41,822 bases of DNA from Escherichia phage vB-Eco-KMB41. The notes beneath the pieces were generated by a model. It ran no database searches, was not told where the DNA came from, and saw nothing but the letters and a program-made list of their open reading frames with translations. Position numbers and translations under genes: made by a program. Within the stretch, counting starts at the first letter, position 1. Every line of letters starts with the position of its first letter. Of the stretch, positions 5,032 to 40,779 are shown in pieces. Location of the stretch: sequence record OR539216.1; one strand, given 5' to 3'.

Positions 5032-5050
5032 TTTAGCAAAAAGTGCTATT
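5032..5050 (-). promoter_or_regulatory. Palindromic box site 2 (TAGCA-AAAAG-TGCTA)
   Basis: Same oriented box, followed about 22 bp downstream (minus sense) by TATTAT, then SD and ATG of 4653..4976. Confidence 0.45.
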
Positions 5051-7338: not shown

Positions 7339-7357
7339 TTTAACAAAAAGTGCTATT
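7339..7357 (-). promoter_or_regulatory. Palindromic box site 3 (TAACA-AAAAG-TGCTA, one mismatch)
   Basis: Degenerate copy of the oriented box upstream of the methylase gene. Confidence 0.35.
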
Positions 7358-27235: not shown

Positions 27236-27505
27236 TTATTTCGTGGCGGCTTTTACGAGGGCCTGAGAGAGATAGAGCGCCTCGTGGTGCGGTGGAACCG
27301 AAGCGGGGATCACGTAGTACAGCGCGACGTCCGGGCCTTCTTCGGCGTGGATCCTCTCACTGGCGACGATCCTCCACTTCTCCCCCTCCTCCGGTCCTTC
27401 CAGTATGCCGTCCAGGTCGTGGCGTTCTTCGAGTGTCTGGCCCAGCTTGCGGAGGGCGGACACTCCCCCGCCCGGAAAGGCGAGGTAGTGATGGATTATG
27501 CTCAA
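27236..27505 (-). CDS. hypothetical protein (89 aa)
   Basis: ORF with balanced composition between the 158-aa ORF and scaffold; overlaps upstream gene by 4 nt. Confidence 0.55.
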   Translation of the reverse strand: MSIIHHYLAFPGGGVSALRKLGQTLEERHDLDGILEGPEEGEKWRIVASERIHAEEGPDVALYYVIPASVPPHHEALYLSQALVKAATK

Positions 27506-27978
27506 AATGGAATGTCCAGTGGTTTGTCGTTGTTGTTTGGCGGAAGGATCTCGGCGTCCTCCACCTCCTCGTCCTTGCGTGGGTTAACTTCGCGAGCGCT
27601 GTCCGCCGCTGCCACGTAGTCGCCTTCGATCGGTCCTTTGTAGGTAAGCTGGCGAATGCTGGCAATGTCCGCCAGGAAGCGAGTCTCCGCCACCATGAAG
27701 TCGGCGCGGAGTTTCTGTAGTCCGGCCTCCATGATCGGGAGGGTGATCTCCGCCAGTTCCTCCGGGGATGGCATCACGTAATTCACGACGATCTCCTGTT
27801 TTGAGAGAGTGATCATCGCCGGGACGTCGTTCCGTGACTGGTATTTCTCCACGCTGTAGAGGTCGCCCAGGTCGTGGTCGCTGAGTGTTACGGTCCCGCG
27901 TTTATAATGCGAGTAGCCGCTGTCTTTCTGTTCTGCGACGCAAAGGCAAACGTATTGAGTTTTGGTTACTGTAGGCAT
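27502..27978 (-). CDS. hypothetical protein (158 aa)
   Basis: First ORF downstream of palindromic box site 4 and its hairpin; no recognisable motif. Confidence 0.65.
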   Translation of the reverse strand: MPTVTKTQYVCLCVAEQKDSGYSHYKRGTVTLSDHDLGDLYSVEKYQSRNDVPAMITLSKQEIVVNYVMPSPEELAEITLPIMEAGLQKLRADFMVAETRFLADIASIRQLTYKGPIEGDYVAAADSAREVNPRKDEEVEDAEILPPNNNDKPLDIPF

Positions 27979-28052: not shown

Positions 28053-28071
28053 TTTAGCAATTCGTGCTCTT
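28053..28071 (-). promoter_or_regulatory. Palindromic box site 4 (TAGCA-ATTCG-TGCTC, one mismatch)
   Basis: Oriented box followed about 22 bp downstream (minus sense) by TATAGT and a GGCGGGG-loop-CCCCGCC hairpin, upstream of 27502..27978; overlaps the stop codon of 28054..28359. Confidence 0.5.
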
Positions 28072-30933: not shown

Positions 30934-32556
30934 TTAGCGGTTACTCGGCACATTATAGCCGGAATAATCTTCGTCTTTCACTGCCTCCGGTGGCTGCATT
31001 AACATGCAAAGCACGTCAGCCATCCCCGGCGACTTCATTTTGAGTTTGGTCCGCATCTGCGGCTTAGGCATCCTAGCAAATTTTCCGTTGGTGTTATAAA
31101 TACGCGGAATACGGCACACTTCCGCGCGGAGTTTGGTCATATGCTCCCCGATCCCCTCGCTGTCGAGGCTGATCATCTCGTCCGGGTTGTGATATTCGCC
31201 CTTTACTACCGCCTGGTAGGTCTTTTCGAAGCGCTTCCGTAAGAGGTAGATGTCCTGGGAGCCACGGTTCGCGAACGCGTCCACGTTCTTCTGAATGTTG
31301 TCCCCGCTGGCCTTGTTGTTCAGCCAGTGATCCAGCTCCACCGGGTTGTCCGGGAACTTCACGCCGTCCCCGGCGTTGTAGCCGTCTACGAGGACCTTCG
31401 TCCCGGCGTAAGCCTCCGTGACCTGGCGACGTAAGCCAGCGCCCAGTCCCGCGCGGTCCCACACGAACGCCTCCACGCCGTGATCCTTCGCCGTGTTGAT
31501 CGCCTTGTCTACGCTGTCGTTCGCGTCCCCTTCGAACCACTCCTCCATGTGAGTGACTACGGAGCCGTAGCGCTCGCCGTAAGCCTTGTTATCCGCGCCA
31601 ACGTCCGCCGGGTCGAGTGCGCCGATACGCATCCCCGAAGGCTTCCATCCGAGTTTCTTGTGGGCGTCCACGGCTGCGTCGAACCATTCCGCCGGGATAA
31701 TGGCGTCAGGAACAGAATCGTTAAAATGGCCTTCCCATACGTGGTTAAACAGCGCTTTCGAGAGGGTTACGCGGTCGAACTCCATCTCCGATCGAAGCTC
31801 TGGGGGGAACCACGGATTATCTGACCAGTTCACGCGGATAATCAGGTGGAGATCGTCCTCGTAGATGCCGTCCCGCTGGAGATCCTCCCAGAATGGGATG
31901 AGAAAACGTTGAGAGAACGCATCCTCCGAGGATCCGGGGTTGGCGGTGAACAGCATCATGCCGCCCGTTTCGCGCATGGTCGGGGTTAACTGGCGGAGAG
32001 ACTCGGCGGAAAAGGTCTGCGCCTCCTCGCCCCAGAAGCGACGGAAGCCGAACGCGGACTTAACTCCCGCCGGGTCCCTGGCCATCCCCTTAAATCGGAT
32101 GATCGCGCCGTTGGAGTGGCGGATCTCCTTCTCCAGTACCTCGAAGCCGTCCAGCCCGTAAGCCTCGATCCGGTTGACGAGGAGCGGGTGGACTGAATCC
32201 TTGATCGATGCCTGATACTCACGGAGACACATCGCGCTCGCTGCCTCGTCGTGGGCGTCAGCGTCGATGATCCCCCCGACGGTGAGCGACTTCCCGGAGC
32301 CACGTCCGCCGACCAGGATAATAAAGCGCTTCGGACGGAGGAGGATCGGGGTCAGGACCTCGGCGATCGTGATGTCGTGCGGCTCACTGGTGTAAACCCA
32401 TTCGCCCTTTACTTTTTTCATGTTGTAGAGGTGCTTCGCGCTGGTCCCGTCCGGCTCATATACGCCGTAGATCAGCCCGCCCTCTCGCGCCACGTAAGCG
32501 GCCCGCCCCTCCAGGCGAGCCAGTCGATCGAGATTATCCTTTCTGTTTTTTGCCAT
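30934..32556 (-). CDS. terminase large subunit
   Basis: N-terminal ATPase with Walker A VGGRGSGKS, C-terminal nuclease-like region, position immediately upstream of portal. Confidence 0.9.
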   Translation of the reverse strand: MAKNRKDNLDRLARLEGRAAYVAREGGLIYGVYEPDGTSAKHLYNMKKVKGEWVYTSEPHDITIAEVLTPILLRPKRFIILVGGRGSGKSLTVGGIIDADAHDEAASAMCLREYQASIKDSVHPLLVNRIEAYGLDGFEVLEKEIRHSNGAIIRFKGMARDPAGVKSAFGFRRFWGEEAQTFSAESLRQLTPTMRETGGMMLFTANPGSSEDAFSQRFLIPFWEDLQRDGIYEDDLHLIIRVNWSDNPWFPPELRSEMEFDRVTLSKALFNHVWEGHFNDSVPDAIIPAEWFDAAVDAHKKLGWKPSGMRIGALDPADVGADNKAYGERYGSVVTHMEEWFEGDANDSVDKAINTAKDHGVEAFVWDRAGLGAGLRRQVTEAYAGTKVLVDGYNAGDGVKFPDNPVELDHWLNNKASGDNIQKNVDAFANRGSQDIYLLRKRFEKTYQAVVKGEYHNPDEMISLDSEGIGEHMTKLRAEVCRIPRIYNTNGKFARMPKPQMRTKLKMKSPGMADVLCMLMQPPEAVKDEDYSGYNVPSNR

Positions 32557-32971
32557 AGCCCAGATCCTGGAATGATCGTTCCGTCATATGGAATAAATGC
32601 CCCACCAGATACGCCTCCGGCTCGTCGTTGTTGGCGTCGTGCGTGAATCCAAGCGTGTCGGCGATGAAGTTCTTAACGTGGACCAGTTCGTGGGCGATGG
32701 TCGTCCGCCAGTGCGGCCCACGCTTTACTCCCACTAAGACCAGTTTCACGCCGTCGTCCGCGTGGTACTCCGTGGCGCTGCCCTGCGGGAAAGGATCAAG
32801 CATGGCCCACCGTGGGAAGCATTCGAGCATTTTCCCCACCATCTCCTCGTCCTGCGGGTCGTAACATACAATAAAGTAAGGGTAAGGTGAGGCGGTGAAC
32901 CATTTCAGGCCCAGCGCCTCCAGTCTGCCGTAAGTGTCCGGCGGTAGCTTATTCTTGCGGGTTCTCGCCAT
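32534..32971 (-). CDS. hypothetical protein with HExxH zinc-metallopeptidase-like motif (145 aa)
   Basis: IAHELVHV followed by EPEAY about 25 residues downstream; sits between TerS-like and TerL with 23-nt overlaps on both sides. Confidence 0.55.
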   Translation of the reverse strand: MARTRKNKLPPDTYGRLEALGLKWFTASPYPYFIVCYDPQDEEMVGKMLECFPRWAMLDPFPQGSATEYHADDGVKLVLVGVKRGPHWRTTIAHELVHVKNFIADTLGFTHDANNDEPEAYLVGHLFHMTERSFQDLGYGKKQKG

Positions 32972-33503
32972 TCAGTCGGGCCTCCAGTGCGTCCAGACGC
33001 TTGACCATCTCGGACATTTCGAACACTTCCGCGCCGTGGCGGATCATCTTCACCATTGCCTCCGCCGCGTCGAACGGTAGCTCCCCATTCGCCACCAGGT
33101 CCTCGATCTCGGTGATACGCTCGGACGGGGTGGATCCGGTCAGTTCAAAGCAATAGGTCGGGCTGGTCGGCTTCGTGTAGGGGATTAAGCGGCTCATGAT
33201 ATCGCGCATCATGGATCCGTCTACCATTGCCATCTGGATCGCTCGCTGGATGAAGATATCCTCCGTAAGTTGGATCTCCTCGTACTCGTCAACCATGATC
33301 GGCTCGCCCGTCTCCGGGTCGCGCTTCACCTCGCCAGTGTTGGGATCGACGTCCTCGACCTTGCGCCCGGTGCGCTCCTTGATGCGGACTTTTTTCAGCG
33401 CTTCGAGGAGTAACGTCCGGTTCTGCTTCGCCCGGCCCCGGCGCTCTGGCTGGTTGTCTTTGGAGAACTTCTTCCCCTTCGTTAAATTCTGTTCGTTAGC
33501 CAC
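32949..33503 (-). CDS. putative terminase small subunit
   Basis: Basic N-terminus (KGKKFSKDNQPERRGRAKQNRTLLLEALKK), acidic helical remainder, two genes upstream of TerL; assignment positional and compositional only. Confidence 0.5.
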   Translation of the reverse strand: MANEQNLTKGKKFSKDNQPERRGRAKQNRTLLLEALKKVRIKERTGRKVEDVDPNTGEVKRDPETGEPIMVDEYEEIQLTEDIFIQRAIQMAMVDGSMMRDIMSRLIPYTKPTSPTYCFELTGSTPSERITEIEDLVANGELPFDAAEAMVKMIRHGAEVFEMSEMVKRLDALEARLNGENPQE

Positions 33504-33576
33504 AAAAAAATCCTCCGTTTATCGCCTGAGTCTCACAGGGTTACGCGGAGGATTATCGGCGGTTACGGAACAGTGA

Positions 33577-33876
33577 TCAAGCCCGCTTAAACGAGAGGTC
33601 AGGGCATAGGTGCATATTCTCGGCGGTTATCGGCCAGGGGCTTACGGGGTGATTGAATGCCAGCGTGTCCCGCTTCTTCGCCACATAGCCCCGACTCTTG
33701 CCCTTCGGCTCCGCCAGGCTGGCGCACAGCACACAAGCGCCGTTTGACGTGTACCGGGTGAAGTTCCCGCCGTGGGTCTTGCACTCCGGCCCGTAGTACG
33801 TCCGGGCCTTGAGGAGACGCGCCTCCGCCTTGTTCTTCGCCGTGACCTTGTTCGGCTCCTTGCTCTGCCAGCCCAT
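33577..33876 (-). CDS. hypothetical Cys-containing basic protein (99 aa)
   Basis: Contains GPECKTHGG...ACVLC; overlapping alternative-frame ORF 33599..33991 is Arg/Ala-rich and rejected. Confidence 0.55.
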   Translation of the reverse strand: MGWQSKEPNKVTAKNKAEARLLKARTYYGPECKTHGGNFTRYTSNGACVLCASLAEPKGKSRGYVAKKRDTLAFNHPVSPWPITAENMHLCPDLSFKRA

Positions 33877-34439
33877 CAGTCACAGCCCCCCGGTGAGGTG
33901 TAGGATCCGCCGCTGTCTCCGCTGTCATAGCTCGGTGACGGGTCGTAGCTGGGCGAGTGGTGCGTGACTGGCTCGCACACGGACGGCTCACTGGAGGCGC
34001 TCGTGTGGCGGTGGCTGCTGTCGTCCCAGTCGTTCAGCGGATTGAGCGGGGAGATCGGGGAAGGCGGGTTTAACGGGTTGAGGAGGTGCATCGGGTCCGA
34101 GATCGGATCCTGCTGCGTTCCGCGCGCTGCCGGGCGTGGGTCCTGCGCCATAGCGCGGGCAAGCTGGGCCGCTCGTGGGTCGCGGTGCTGCGCTGCCTTC
34201 GCTGCCTGGCGCTGTTTGGCGATCACGCTCTGCGGTAGGTACGCCGGGCGCTGTTCCGCCAGCCTCTCCTGAGCGCGGCGTGACTGCTCCAGATGTCCCT
34301 CGCTCTGGGTGATCATATCGCGAATGGCGCGGCGGGTGTCTGCCTGGCACTCGTCACACTGATAAATGTCCGCCTCTGTCCAGCGACGCGGCTCCGTCTT
34401 GCCACATGTGCGGCACTCTTTGAAACGTTGTATTGACAT
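33876..34439 (-). CDS. zinc-ribbon protein with Pro/Ser-rich low-complexity C-terminus (187 aa)
   Basis: N-terminal CRTCG...CDEC (CxxC-N17-CxxC), then repeats NPLNPPSPISPLNPLN and SPSYDPSPSYDSGDSGGSY. Confidence 0.6.
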   Translation of the reverse strand: MSIQRFKECRTCGKTEPRRWTEADIYQCDECQADTRRAIRDMITQSEGHLEQSRRAQERLAEQRPAYLPQSVIAKQRQAAKAAQHRDPRAAQLARAMAQDPRPAARGTQQDPISDPMHLLNPLNPPSPISPLNPLNDWDDSSHRHTSASSEPSVCEPVTHHSPSYDPSPSYDSGDSGGSYTSPGGCD

Positions 34440-34504
34440 TGTTCGATCTCTCTCGTGGGTGGAAACGGCCCCAGCATATCGCCGGGGCGTACATCATGCA
34501 AGCG

Positions 34505-34687
34505 TTATCTAATGAAGGTATGGAAGAACCACAGCAGACCACAGACGCACAGGAACAGCGTCACGCCGCGCCATACCAGATCGAACCAGTCGATCGAGGT
34601 GTCCGGCTCTGCTGGTACGACTACCCAGCCCGCCGCGATCTCGCGCTTCTTCGCTTCGTGTTCTGCCAGCGTTACCGGGGGACGCAT
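34505..34687 (-). CDS. small membrane protein (about 60 aa)
   Basis: Start set at internal Met (MRPPVT...); C-terminal hydrophobic segment LFLCVCGLLWFF; the longer form overlaps the upstream gene with Arg-rich sequence. Confidence 0.45.
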   Translation of the reverse strand: MRPPVTLAEHEAKKREIAAGWVVVPAEPDTSIDWFDLVWRGVTLFLCVCGLLWFFHTFIR

Positions 34688-34728
34688 AACGAAAAAGGGG
34701 GCGTTACGATCCCCCCAGGCGCTGGCCC

Positions 34729-35673
34729 TCACTTTACGACGCGGTAGCGCTTCACGTCGGCCCATTCAACCACGGACGAGTCCAGGGTGACGCGATCGCC
34801 GCTGGTCAGTTCAAGCTCCAGCAACGTGTCGCGGTTGAGAGACTTCGGCGCGTAGCCCCATTCCCACACGGTCCAGCCTTCGTCCTGCTCGCCAGTCTGC
34901 GGACGGTCCAGCAGTACGTCCATGAGTTCGGACGCTGCCGCCACGCGGATCTCCCCGTTGTTGTTCATGCGGTGGATAAGCTGGCGGACCGCTTCGTGGC
35001 GCTTGACGTGCCAGCGGAGGCTCTGTTCCGTCTCCTGGCGCTTGCGCTCGGCGAAGTGGTTCAGGCGATCGCCGTCCGTTTCGCAGTTGGTCAGGCGCTC
35101 GGTCGCCTCTGCCGCCTGGACGGTGTGGCGGAGTGCTGCGGTCGGTAACTTGAACACGTTCCAGTTATACGGGATCCGCTTCTCGTCGCAAGCCTTCACG
35201 TAACGGCCCAGCAGGTCCACGCGGGCCTCGGCGTCCTCTGCTGCCTTGCGGTTGCGCTCGGAGTTCTCGCTGTTCGCCACCAGCGCCCGCGCCCGCTGCT
35301 CGGTGTACTGGATATGCTTCGGCTTGCCCGGCTTCGGGTTGAAGTAGTGCGGGACGTCCTGCGTCCCCAGGATCACGCGAAGGTCCACGTAGTAGCCGCC
35401 GATCCGTTCGTTGTCCTCGCGCATACGTTCCGCCAGCGCTTCCAGTTCGCGCTCGCGGGTCTTGTCGCGCCACTTCTCGGACTCGGAGAACACGCGGGCC
35501 AGCGCCTCGTCGGAGAGGAGCGGGAGGTGATGTTCCGCCAGGTCTGGCTCCGGTTTGAAGCCCTGCGCCATCGCGTCGCGAATGTCGGCGAGGTGGATCT
35601 GGCGAGTGGTAAGGCGTTGACGCTGTTCAATGGTCAGGCAAGCGTAGAGCAAGCCCTGATCGTGTGAGTTCAT
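34729..35673 (-). CDS. hypothetical protein (314 aa)
   Basis: Long ORF with balanced composition and predicted helical content; preceded by GAAA-tetraloop hairpin and CCAGAGGA SD. Confidence 0.7.
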   Translation of the reverse strand: MNSHDQGLLYACLTIEQRQRLTTRQIHLADIRDAMAQGFKPEPDLAEHHLPLLSDEALARVFSESEKWRDKTRERELEALAERMREDNERIGGYYVDLRVILGTQDVPHYFNPKPGKPKHIQYTEQRARALVANSENSERNRKAAEDAEARVDLLGRYVKACDEKRIPYNWNVFKLPTAALRHTVQAAEATERLTNCETDGDRLNHFAERKRQETEQSLRWHVKRHEAVRQLIHRMNNNGEIRVAAASELMDVLLDRPQTGEQDEGWTVWEWGYAPKSLNRDTLLELELTSGDRVTLDSSVVEWADVKRYRVVK

Positions 35674-35718
35674 GCTGTAGATCCTCTGGTTGGTTGGCCC
35701 CTTTCGGGGCCGGGTTGG

Positions 35719-36048
35719 TTAGAACTTGATAGCCGGGATGTAAACGGACTCTTTCGCGCCACCTTTCAGGCTGGACGCTGCCACACATCCCCCGGTGATC
35801 CAGTGCTCCAGGTTGATTTTGCCGCCCGCTGCGTTGATGCGCTCCAGCAGGTGCTCCGCCTGTTCGCGTGTCTCAAAGACCGCGTAATGATAAAGCTCGT
35901 CGTAATAGCTGTCGTATGTAGCGGCGAACAGCATCTTAACGCGGAAGGCCGGGAGGCGCTTCGGCATGTCGCGGCCCACGCGCTCGTCGAAGGCTTTCTC
36001 TGTTTTGCTGTAGAAAAGCGGGGATTCAATTTCGAAGTATGTAGCCAT
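35719..36048 (-). CDS. hypothetical protein (109 aa)
   Basis: Start set at MATYFE (GGAGAC SD); the ORF track's 224-aa form would run through the promoter module and the neighbouring membrane-protein gene. Confidence 0.65.
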   Translation of the reverse strand: MATYFEIESPLFYSKTEKAFDERVGRDMPKRLPAFRVKMLFAATYDSYYDELYHYAVFETREQAEHLLERINAAGGKINLEHWITGGCVAASSLKGGAKESVYIPAIKF

Positions 36049-36120
36049 TTTGTCGTCTCCAGTTGGGCGGGACCATTTCCCGCCTCTGGAAATAACTATA
36101 CAGTGATTTATCAAATGTGT

Positions 36121-36139
36121 TTTAGCAATTCGTGCTATT
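36121..36139 (-). promoter_or_regulatory. Palindromic box site 5 (TAGCA-ATTCG-TGCTA, perfect)
   Basis: Followed about 22 bp downstream (minus sense) by TATAGT, then GGCGGGA-loop-TCCCGCC hairpin, SD and ATG at 36048; overlaps the stop codon of 36135..36416. Confidence 0.55.
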
Positions 36140-36416
36140 CGTCCCAGCGCCCCGGCTTGAACAGGACGCCGCGCCGCCAGTCCTGCCACGTCCAGTAAGG
36201 CCAGCCAAACGCCATCAGCACGACGGCGCATATCAGCATAAGCGCGACGATGAAGGCCGCGAGGGGTAGGAGGGCTGGCGGGATGTGCGCCGCCTCCTTG
36301 CGCGTCAGGTTGGCGAGGTGCTTCGCCCCGCCTCCCTGGGTGAACTCGACCACGAACCAGGCTATGCCGACCAGCCACCACGCGAAGATCCAATTTAACA
36401 TTTCAATACATCCCAT
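36135..36416 (-). CDS. small integral membrane protein (93 aa)
   Basis: Two strongly hydrophobic segments (WIFAWWLVGIAWFVV and LPLAAFIVALMLICAVVLMAF). Confidence 0.6.
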   Translation of the reverse strand: MGCIEMLNWIFAWWLVGIAWFVVEFTQGGGAKHLANLTRKEAAHIPPALLPLAAFIVALMLICAVVLMAFGWPYWTWQDWRRGVLFKPGRWDE

Positions 36417-36756
36417 TAGTGAGTAAGTATAAGCGCCCGTTCCTCATGGAGCGGACCATCTGCGAGGATCCCCAGCCTCCCGGCACTCGGTACATCATGC
36501 CGTTAGCGCCCCGGCAGTAGAGGCGGTTACGGTCGCGGAAGCCGCGAAGCTGTCGCCCTGTCTGCGTCCCCTTCGGGTCCACGATGCGGCAGAATACCGG
36601 AGCGCCGCCGTATAGCTGCGTAAGGTCGTGAATGTGCTTACGCTGGGCTTGCTGGACCATCTCCTCCGCCTCTTTCCATGCGCATGACTCGCACAGGCCG
36701 GAGGCAGTACCCGCCGCGATCGGCAGGTGGCAACGTCGGCAGTAACTAAAGACCAT
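36403..36756 (-). CDS. zinc-ribbon protein (117 aa)
   Basis: N-terminal CRRCH...CESC (CxxC-N12-CxxC) motif. Confidence 0.6.
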   Translation of the reverse strand: MVFSYCRRCHLPIAAGTASGLCESCAWKEAEEMVQQAQRKHIHDLTQLYGGAPVFCRIVDPKGTQTGRQLRGFRDRNRLYCRGANGMMYRVPGGWGSSQMVRSMRNGRLYLLTNGMY

Positions 36757-37780: not shown

Positions 37781-37799
37781 TTTAGCAATTCGTGCTATT
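37781..37799 (-). promoter_or_regulatory. Palindromic box site 6 (TAGCA-ATTCG-TGCTA, perfect)
   Basis: Followed about 22 bp downstream (minus sense) by TAATAT, then GGGCG-loop-CGCCC hairpin and the ATG at about 37707. Confidence 0.55.
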
Positions 37800-38749: not shown

Positions 38750-38980
38750 AAATCATGGTTACGTGAGGTTTTCATTAAGCCCTCAAAAAGTGCCAGCAAA
38801 TGGCCCCGGTTACATCATTTAAAATCTGTCACCAAATGTTAGTTAAGTGATTGAATTAAATCCGGTTACATTGCAGGTTTCATTGTCTCAAAAAATGTAA
38901 CTTGCGCTTAACTCGGTTACGGTTACAGGTTACATCTCTCTCTATATAGAGAGAGTGTAACTGTCACCGATGTAACCGGG
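38750..38980. repeat. Iteron-like array: at least 8 GGTTAC/GTAACC hexamers (three in tandem at about 38915..38933), TGTCACC motifs and a perfect 20-bp palindrome CTCTCTCTATATAGAGAGAG (about 38936..38955)
   Basis: Read directly; 255-bp non-coding gap immediately downstream of the AAA_25 ATPase gene; hexamer density far above the roughly 1 per 2 kb expected by chance. Confidence 0.7.
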
Positions 38981-40638: not shown

Positions 40639-40664
40639 TGTTTAATCACCTCATGGTTACATTA

Positions 40665-40701
40665 CGGGAGACAATGTAACCGCTATTTGTCACCGCGTCA
40701 A
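40665..40701 (-). promoter_or_regulatory. Sigma70-like promoter (TTGACG-17 bp-TACATT) overlapped by inverted repeat GGTTACATT-N9-AATGTAACC
   Basis: Read on minus strand: -35 TTGACG, 17-bp spacer, -10 TACATT, then AGGTGA SD and ATG of the ATPase; the 9-bp-arm palindrome covers the -10 and start region. Confidence 0.5.
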
Positions 40702-40779
40702 TTCAGCGCCAGTAAAGAAAACTCTTTACATCACGGTTACGTTACCTTAAGGTGATAGCCGAACACGACGGAGGTCATT

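Follow-up and report, generated by a model that had tools for sequence, protein, structure and literature searches.

Immediately upstream of the packaging genes of Escherichia phage vB_EcoP_KMB41 (KMB41, a Murrayvirus; sequence record OR539216.1), two overlapping genes on the minus strand encode small proteins with clusters of potential zinc ligands: orfA (33876..34439, 187 residues) and orfB (33577..33876, 99 residues). All positions refer to the window, by which we mean the whole stretch of 41,822 nucleotides that was analyzed. The reading that we favor, with a probability of roughly 40%, is that orfB would be a small factor that binds DNA where the packaging operon begins and that orfA would be an adaptor working through its C-terminal tail. 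The original prediction for this region, made from the DNA letters, placed both proteins among candidate late-gene activators of the P2 Ogr type, an idea that has little support. As things stand, orfA and orfB are conserved hypothetical proteins of an ordinary kind, and either gene may be dispensable.

Conservation and Setting of the Two Genes

orfA and orfB are real genes, because their third-position GC contents (0.77 and 0.84, respectively) fit that of TerL (0.76; the overlapping alternative frames have 0.52-0.53) and because their homologs keep the invariant ligand residues. The two coding sequences overlap in an ATGA, an arrangement retained in every locus examined. The same two lines of evidence bear out the original prediction of two adjacent genes here, both open reading frames being present, and the placement upstream of the packaging genes is likewise correct: genes for a TerS-like protein (184 residues), an HExxH protein (145 residues), TerL, and portal come next. 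The full order, which runs from a gene of about 315 residues and one for a possibly membrane-anchored protein of about 80 residues through orfA, orfB, and the TerS-like, HExxH, and TerL genes to portal, is kept in Murray- and Sortsne-type phages. The shorter order orfB-promoter-TerS-like-HExxH-TerL is common to Murrayvirus, Sortsnevirus, Skarprettervirus, and Hungariovirus and to metagenomic contigs.

The Murrayvirus phages ST231, IME_EC2, sortsyn, sortregn, and Lumpael share 78-90% DNA identity with the KMB41 window, and Sortsnevirus is more distant kin. All homologs of orfA and orfB are annotated as "hypothetical protein". A literature search on Murrayvirus, Sortsnevirus, IME_EC2, and KMB41 found no data on expression timing, virion proteomes, or binding, and the KMB41 literature covers host range and taxonomy in one paper, without gene functions. 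Scans of both proteins and of their whole families with Pfam, NCBIfam, and PADLOC returned only sub-threshold generic ribbons, and a sequence search of the Protein Data Bank (PDB) with the orfA and orfB family profiles gave nothing significant.

A Putative Zinc Module in orfB

orfB is basic (pI 9.8) and is composed of a putative Cys-His-Cys-Cys zinc module and a lineage-specific C-terminal tail. The ligand set is C32-x2-H35-x12-C48-x2-C51, to which C91 can be added; C32, H35, C48, and C51 are invariant in 18 orfB homologs. The description of both proteins as Cys-cluster zinc ribbons thus fits orfA, whose putative ribbon has four cysteines, and not orfB, whose ligands do not form a four-cysteine ribbon. 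Seventeen orthologs of orfB were found, and the protein matches phrog_30250 (E=1e-50), a family of unknown function. Of the two genes, only orfB is retained in all four related genera, with orthologs in Skarpretter, C130_2, and STP9 that are 40-42% identical.

The module spans residues 11-55 (33712..33846, minus strand) and has the pattern R..A…Y.G..C..H…RY.S.G.C..C. A profile of the 18 orthologs was searched against 1.84 billion cluster representatives with a cut-off of E<=1e-3. It matches 157 representatives, nearly all of which cover only profile positions from roughly 7 to 57, and the consensus that emerges is R..A…G…Y.G..C..(G)H…RY.S.G.C..C, or, in spacing form, R..A…G…Y.G..C.(1-5).[HC].(9-13).RY.S.G.C..C. 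When 165 proteins were re-scanned, the module was present once in 42, twice in 90, three times in 28, and four times in 5. Of 323 related modules, 264 have His and 59 have Cys as the second ligand, a swap that is expected of a metal ligand. Together with the conservation of the ligands, this swapping suggests that orfB binds zinc.

The relatives also indicate what the module may do. Pfam matches among 105 of them include HNH (8), HNH_5 (7), HNH_4 (4), and EndoVII (3), and Foldseek, run against viral models, recovers it from EndoVII, GIY-YIG intron-endonuclease, and HNH proteins as well as from many uncharacterized phage proteins. A module that forms tandem arrays and is fused to nucleases of three unrelated families has the hallmarks of DNA recognition, and orfB is therefore plausibly a DNA-binding protein. 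To this extent the DNA binding that was proposed for the pair is plausible; orfA, as described below, does not behave as a general binder of the palindromic box. No Pfam or NCBIfam model and no PDB structure matches the module, the proteins recovered in a further homolog search with the module alignment were all unnamed, and PADLOC gave nothing for orfB. orfB itself has one module and no Pfam nuclease domain.

AlphaFold gave a confident model of the module (residues 11-55) from a deep alignment. When the 95-sequence module alignment was supplied, the 10-residue blocks that span residues 11-50 of orfB were modeled at a predicted local distance difference test (pLDDT) score of ~90, with a helix at 16-21, strands at 26-28 and 40-42 that form a beta-hairpin, and a helix at 49-55; residues 56-99 had low confidence. 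The 18-sequence orfB alignment afforded a poor model, with a pLDDT of 54. The orfB module is homologous to tandem repeats, presumably zinc-binding DNA-recognition modules, of phage proteins that have the nuclease domains of free-standing homing endonucleases (HNH, EndoVII, GIY-YIG), and it shares with them the ligand pattern and the predicted helix/beta-hairpin/helix. In contrast to those proteins, orfB has a single copy, no nuclease, an extra lineage tail, and a position that is fixed rather than mobile.

The tail (residues 56-99; 33580..33711, minus strand) reads GY(I/V)AKK.D.LAF.HPVSPWPIT..NMHLCPDLS, is specific to this phage group, and is the part with low pLDDT. G63, Y64, K67, D70, A73, H76-P82, D93, and L94 are invariant, and the segment is partly kept in Skarpretter and C130_2 as GY.AK.AD..AFNHRGAPL. 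Module relatives outside the group occupy varied settings. Single-module relatives of 82 residues lie among early genes of temperate phages, and another relative lies among nucleotide-metabolism genes. In an unrelated phage contig of 55 kb, a two-module relative directly precedes a TerS-sized gene and TerL, and a further module protein stands at the head of an operon leading to an Sf6-type TerS. These varied contexts indicate that the module is general-purpose and that the present phage group is set apart by its own orthologous family, which combines module and tail and is located at the packaging promoter.

The Packaging Promoter and Its Hairpin

The gap of 73 nt after orfB holds a sigma-70-type promoter for the packaging operon, TTGATC-N17-GATAAT (33552..33580, minus strand), which was located by consensus scan and whose -35 hexamer includes the stop codon of orfB. 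Conservation of TTGAT and the -10 hexamer extends over 7 phages from 4 genera and over 10 Murray-/Sortsne-type loci. In these 10 loci, the intergenic stretch has a mean column identity of 82%, compared with 49-94% identity of the orfB protein, and the -35, -10, CCUCC, and GGAGGA elements are invariant. A GTAACC copy lies on either side of the -10 hexamer; of all copies of this repeat, only these two are common to Murrayviruses, and Sortsne-type loci do not conserve them.

The same stretch can form a hairpin, AAUCCUCCG-N28-CGGAGGAUU, followed by a U-run (33504..33554, minus strand). Its 5' arm overlaps the -10 hexamer, and its 3' arm is the Shine-Dalgarno (SD) sequence of the TerS-like gene: CCUCCG directly after the -10 pairs with the CGGAGG of the SD, with U7 and the start codon next. 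The fold energy is -17.4 kcal/mol (z=-2.1). Both arms are invariant in the 10 loci and so offer no covariation, and the hairpin is found in only two of the four genera. An Rfam scan of 32800-36500 gave nothing above chance, its one match (E=0.81) being far under the gathering score. Transcripts that read through from upstream would form the hairpin, which would lead to termination and a masked ribosome site, whereas transcripts begun ~7 nt after the -10 hexamer would lack the 5' arm and would be translated. If the hairpin is read as a terminator, orfB is the last gene of the preceding operon. The region 33504-33580 may serve as terminator of the upstream operon and as anti-SD element at once.

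This arrangement resembles that of Mu Com, likewise a small zinc-finger protein encoded just 5' of a gene with a hairpin-buried ribosome site. By analogy, orfB would be an RNA-binding translational activator that opens the hairpin over the ribosome site of the TerS-like gene on read-through transcripts and thereby couples translation of the packaging genes to the upstream operon. The start codon indeed follows the 3' arm, the GGAGGA ribosome site, after 6-7 nt, the anti-SD and SD are invariant in the 10 loci, and a small zinc protein is encoded immediately upstream, as in Mu com/mom. However, the hairpin is not everywhere that orfB is, since Skarpretter and C130_2 keep the gene without it; some module relatives carry DNA nucleases; orfB has no match to the Com profile; and transcripts from the adjacent promoter, judging from the position of its -10, probably lack the 5' arm. 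A Com-like role is, in our estimation, very doubtful.

The neighboring TerS-like gene invites another reading, in which orfB would recognize DNA as a subunit of the packaging apparatus and guide TerS to the packaging start site. It would occupy the genomic place of the terminase-associated HNH proteins of cos phages, without a nuclease. Strict synteny of orfB with the TerS-like gene and TerL in four genera, the HNH nucleases among the module relatives, and the two-module relative directly 5' of a TerS-sized gene and TerL elsewhere are what one would expect of such a subunit. A promoter and a probable terminator between orfB and the TerS-like gene nevertheless put the two into different transcription units, and other module proteins are encoded in early regions. 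We consider a packaging accessory unlikely.

orfA Has a Conserved Tail and a Putative Ribbon That One Homolog Lacks

Twenty-nine homologs of orfA were found, all on phage contigs of roughly 40 kb, and alignment A1 compares 28 homologs. The protein comprises a predicted zinc ribbon, a variable linker, a Pro/Asn-rich block, and an acidic Ser/Asp/His/Tyr tail. The ribbon knuckles (residues 9-31; 34347..34415, minus strand) are C9xxC12-N15-C28xxC31, so that the spacing given previously, CxxC-N17-CxxC, must be corrected to N15. In the 28 homologs, C12, C28, and C31 are invariant and C9 is >=90% conserved. A DksA/TraR-like C4 finger was considered for orfA and rejected: in DksA and TraR the finger is CxxC-N17-CxxC and lies C-terminally, after a coiled coil, whereas orfA has an N-terminal motif with N15 spacing and gave no profile match.

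All matches to the orfA ribbon are sub-threshold. Zn_ribbon_IS1595 and DUF7573 are each matched by 13/28 members; the orfA score against Zn_ribbon_IS1595 is 16.5 bits (curated cut-off 25.4), and the best E-value for DUF7573 is 3.8e-4. The eL43 ribbon is a further generic match, and PADLOC reports a weak match to the Cas12u4 zinc ribbon (E=3.5e-4). Like generic zinc ribbons of the IS1595/TnpB-type transposase, eL43, and DUF7573 kinds, orfA has two CxxC knuckles ~15 residues apart. It differs in that its ribbon is dispensable in the homolog of phage IME279 and in that the PLNP/DWD block and the acidic tail have no known counterpart.

After the ribbon, the linker is mosaic and indel-rich in the alignment. 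Conservation is strongest in residues 95-145 (34005..34157, minus strand), a block that includes …DPRPAARGTQQDPISDPMHLLNPLNPPSPISPLNPLNDWDDSSHRH and has the consensus …DPRPAARGTQQDP.SDP…LNPLNP.SP.SPLNP…DWD.SSHR. Its invariant residues are Q109, D111, L123, N124, P125, S127, S130, P131, N133, P134, D137, W138, D139, H143, and R144. The peptide repeats reported earlier, NPLNPPSPISPLNPLN (residues 121-136) and SPSYDPSPSYD (residues 162-172), are both present exactly as they were described. They are short peptide duplications, and Tandem Repeats Finder detects no DNA array. Codons vary synonymously inside the 95-145 block, which indicates selection on the protein; an overlapping DNA element as the cause of the conservation was rejected on the same evidence. 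The low-complexity tail (residues 146-187; 33879..34004, minus strand) ends in GGCD in most homologs, and SYDSG…GGCD is conserved across the family.

The tail is the part of orfA that is kept family-wide. In Klebsiella phage IME279, the homolog (locus L020, 1973-2389) has lost the whole ribbon and kept the Pro/Asn-rich block and acidic tail, and a metagenomic variant lacks the PLNP stretch with its flanks kept. The gene as a whole is limited to Murray- and Sortsne-type phages and is missing from two of the four genera, represented by Skarpretter and C130_2. At its place, Skarpretter has an unrelated 179-residue gene and C130_2 has two small genes.

Replacement of orfA by unrelated genes in two genera and its variable, mosaic sequence would fit a scenario in which orfB is an inert former homing endonuclease, orfA is an unrelated host-takeover or anti-defense effector, and their adjacency is meaningless. 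The three nuclease families among the module relatives, which are typical of mobile endonucleases, would fit it as well. Such a remnant would not be expected to show what orfB shows, however: the gene is intact at the same place in four genera, with 25 invariant residues and a conserved tail outside the module, and the synonymous variation signifies purifying selection. The PADLOC results, nothing for orfB and only the weak Cas12u4 ribbon match for orfA, also fail to favor an effector. This scenario therefore appears improbable.

Palindromic Boxes, GGTTAC Repeats, and Known Regulators

The original prediction named a palindromic box and GGTTAC repeats as possible DNA targets of the pair. The box, TAGCAC(G/T)(A/T)(A/T)TTGCTA, occurs in six copies, compared with 0.36 expected by chance: at 64-78 on the plus strand and at 5034-5048, 7341-7355, 28055-28069, 36123-36137, and 37783-37797 on the minus strand. 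Each copy is oriented with its downstream genes, lies 22 nt 5' of a -10-like hexamer, and is centered near -42, with a GC hairpin and a ribosome site on its 3' side. No -35 hexamer is present at normal spacing in these promoters. The spacing is that of activator-dependent promoter geometry.

Box counts are 6 in IME_EC2, 7-8 in Skarpretter, and 7 in C130_2; Sortsne has none and in place of the boxes has canonical promoters, TTGCAT/TTGCGG-N17-TATATT. The distribution of orfA is the opposite, since the gene is present in Sortsne and missing from Skarpretter and C130_2, which speaks against orfA as the binder of the box. Moreover, the box at 36123 heads a string of genes that runs into orfA and orfB, and a consensus scan found no promoter-like site between this box and orfA. 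orfA and orfB are therefore probably products of the box promoter rather than its prerequisite.

orfB and a helix-turn-helix protein of the XRE family are both present in all five genomes compared, so that phyletic patterns cannot separate them, and the XRE protein is at least as good a candidate for the 15-bp palindrome. A phyletic search for genes present in the box-containing genomes and not in Sortsne returned only a 158-residue open reading frame that ends in PLDIPF and is not an obvious DNA binder. It lies at 27502-27978 on the minus strand, just 3' of the box at 28055, and is common to IME_EC2, Skarpretter, and C130_2. Its PLDIPF end resembles the C-terminal tip of bacterial single-stranded DNA-binding protein.

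GGTTAC occurs 22 times in the window, compared with 11.5 expected. Copies of TGTAACC/GGTTAC cluster at 38757-38977 around a 20-nt, AT-centered perfect palindrome, CTCTCTCTATATAGAGAGAG (38936-38955), 3' of the primase/helicase gene, and this region looks like an origin or operator. The cluster is specific to KMB41 and is not in IME_EC2, which has both orfA and orfB, a pattern that does not suit a target of either protein. A TGTAACC inverted pair also lies over the primase promoter, with repeats at 40655-40740 as well.

Comparison with known regulators leads to a similar result. Like orfA and orfB, P2 Ogr and P4 Delta are small proteins of phages and have a cluster of cysteines for zinc binding. 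Their genes lie apart from the late operons, and the late promoters on which they act have no -35 hexamer; activation depends on a dyad 5' of -35 and on contact between activator and RNA polymerase. The zinc motif of Ogr is CxxC-N22-CxxxxC. The corresponding spacings are CxxC-N15-CxxC in orfA and CxxH-N12-CxxC in orfB, and the packaging promoter, in contrast to the targets of Ogr, has a usable -35 hexamer. The Ogr_Delta profile (PF04606) gives no match at E<=1 for orfA or orfB and none at E<=0.1 among 28 orfA and 18 orfB members. Antiterminator-Q (Phage_antiter_Q, antitermQ), Com, and DksA/TraR profiles also have no match in either family. The lambda Q antiterminators and the Gram-positive RinA, LtrC, and ArpU proteins offer a positional analogy, in that the regulator gene lies immediately 5' of the late or packaging promoter, and Murray- and Sortsne-type phages have a terminator-like hairpin behind the promoter, which recalls the constitutive late promoter and terminator of the lambda Q arrangement. 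However, no sequence relationship was found, and the hairpin, whose 5' arm overlaps the -10 hexamer, is probably outside the transcripts of that promoter and is absent in two genera.

We weighed the proposal that one or both proteins are zinc-finger late activators whose targets are the GGTTAC repeats or the TAGCA-N5-TGCTA boxes. Small zinc proteins, one of them the basic orfB, encoded at the junction of the replication and structural genes would be apt candidates for such a role; the boxes near -42 without a -35 hexamer have the geometry that an activator would need, and two GTAACC copies flank the packaging -10 in Murrayviruses. Several observations count against the proposal. Ogr_Delta and other activator profiles have no match in either family, and orfA and the box show opposite phyletic patterns. 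Sortsne retains orfB (65% identity) and yet has canonical -35/-10 promoters and no box, and IME_EC2 is without the GGTTAC cluster. orfA and orfB themselves are apparently 3' of a box promoter, the packaging promoter is without a box, and all five genomes contain the XRE helix-turn-helix protein. The analogy with Ogr thus failed in all the tests that were feasible, and both proposed kinds of DNA target are disfavored, most clearly for orfA. An Ogr-like activity of either protein is quite unlikely.

Proposed Roles at the Start of the Packaging Operon

The evidence presented above allows us to add detail to the roles that we favor, a DNA-binding factor and an adaptor. orfA and orfB would be the last genes of an operon for which the box promoter at 36123 is the probable start; in Murray- and Sortsne-type phages, its probable end is the hairpin and U-run inside the packaging promoter and leader. 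orfB would bind a specific DNA sequence at or beside this promoter or leader and would either tune the timing of the packaging genes or mark the DNA for the packaging machinery, with its tail contacting a partner, such as RNA polymerase or TerS. orfA, which does not appear to be a DNA-binding late activator, would be an accessory adaptor or decoy acting via protein contacts of its predicted-disordered tail. Given the gene overlap, it may work together with orfB.

Several observations weigh against these roles. The packaging promoter fits the sigma-70 consensus at 9/12 positions and may need no factor. The hairpin shows no covariation, its arms being tied to the -10 hexamer and the ribosome site, and it is absent in Skarpretter and C130_2, both of which still have orfB. 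Single-module prophage relatives are encoded in early regions far from terminase genes, so that the module as such has no fixed link to packaging. The 184-residue gene is called TerS-like from its position and size only, the disorder of the orfA tail is predicted from composition and indels only, and the zinc binding of both proteins and the DNA binding of orfB are predictions made from sequence.

A more specific version can be formulated, in which orfB would be a domesticated homing-endonuclease module that serves as a packaging-operon switch in P22-like podophages. It would bind 33504-33580, its tail would recruit or release RNA polymerase or TerS, and orfA would modulate it via an acidic, possibly DNA-mimicking tail. 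We regard this version as speculative, though conceivable. If correct, it would define a new class of small regulators for late or packaging genes, based on a zinc module for which neither Pfam nor NCBIfam has a model. Should orfB regulate or mark the start of the packaging operon in any manner, this would be the first function for a zinc module that occurs in phage and bacterial proteins alike (157 cluster representatives) and has no solved structure, and a homing-nuclease DNA-binding module would have been reused as a regulator. The operon boundary itself, at which the -10 region of a conserved promoter, with its discriminator, also supplies an arm of a probable terminator and anti-SD hairpin, provides a testable map of middle versus packaging expression in Murrayvirus-like phages.

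Neighboring Genes and Annotation

The TerS-like gene (32949..33503, minus strand) is the first gene of the packaging operon, is located 5' of the 145-residue gene and TerL in all relatives, and matches phrog_9747, a PHROG family of unknown function. The HExxH protein is encoded between it and TerL (32534-32971, minus strand) and belongs to phrog_1365, also of unknown function; the gene is conserved in the four genera and missing from one metagenomic relative (L030). On the other side, the gene just 5' of orfA (34505-34765, minus strand) encodes a small protein with a hydrophobic C-terminal segment, VTLFLCVCGLLWFF, which by eye is a possible membrane anchor. A shorter start is annotated for it in IME_EC2, and tblastn matches were obtained only in Murrayviruses. 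A lysis role for orfA or orfB was considered and rejected, as the holin, endolysin, and spanin genes sit elsewhere in the window.

The orfB orthologs of two relatives are recorded incorrectly in the public databases. In Skarpretter (gp36/gp37; L004, 4001-4312) and C130_2 (gp55/gp56; L005, 1208-1588), an intact open reading frame is in each case split into two coding sequences. The XRE-family gene of C130_2 (L017, 20475-20663) is left unannotated.

The leader of orfA (34440..34504, minus strand) contains a GC hairpin, followed by CCACCCACGAGAGAGA and the ATG, and a consensus scan found no promoter-like site in it. The combination of a GC-rich stem-loop, CCACC…GAGAGA, and a start codon is a cassette that recurs at 34440-34504 and in the leaders after each box promoter. 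The stem-loop of this cassette has no U-run and may be an RNA processing, stabilizing, or translation element.

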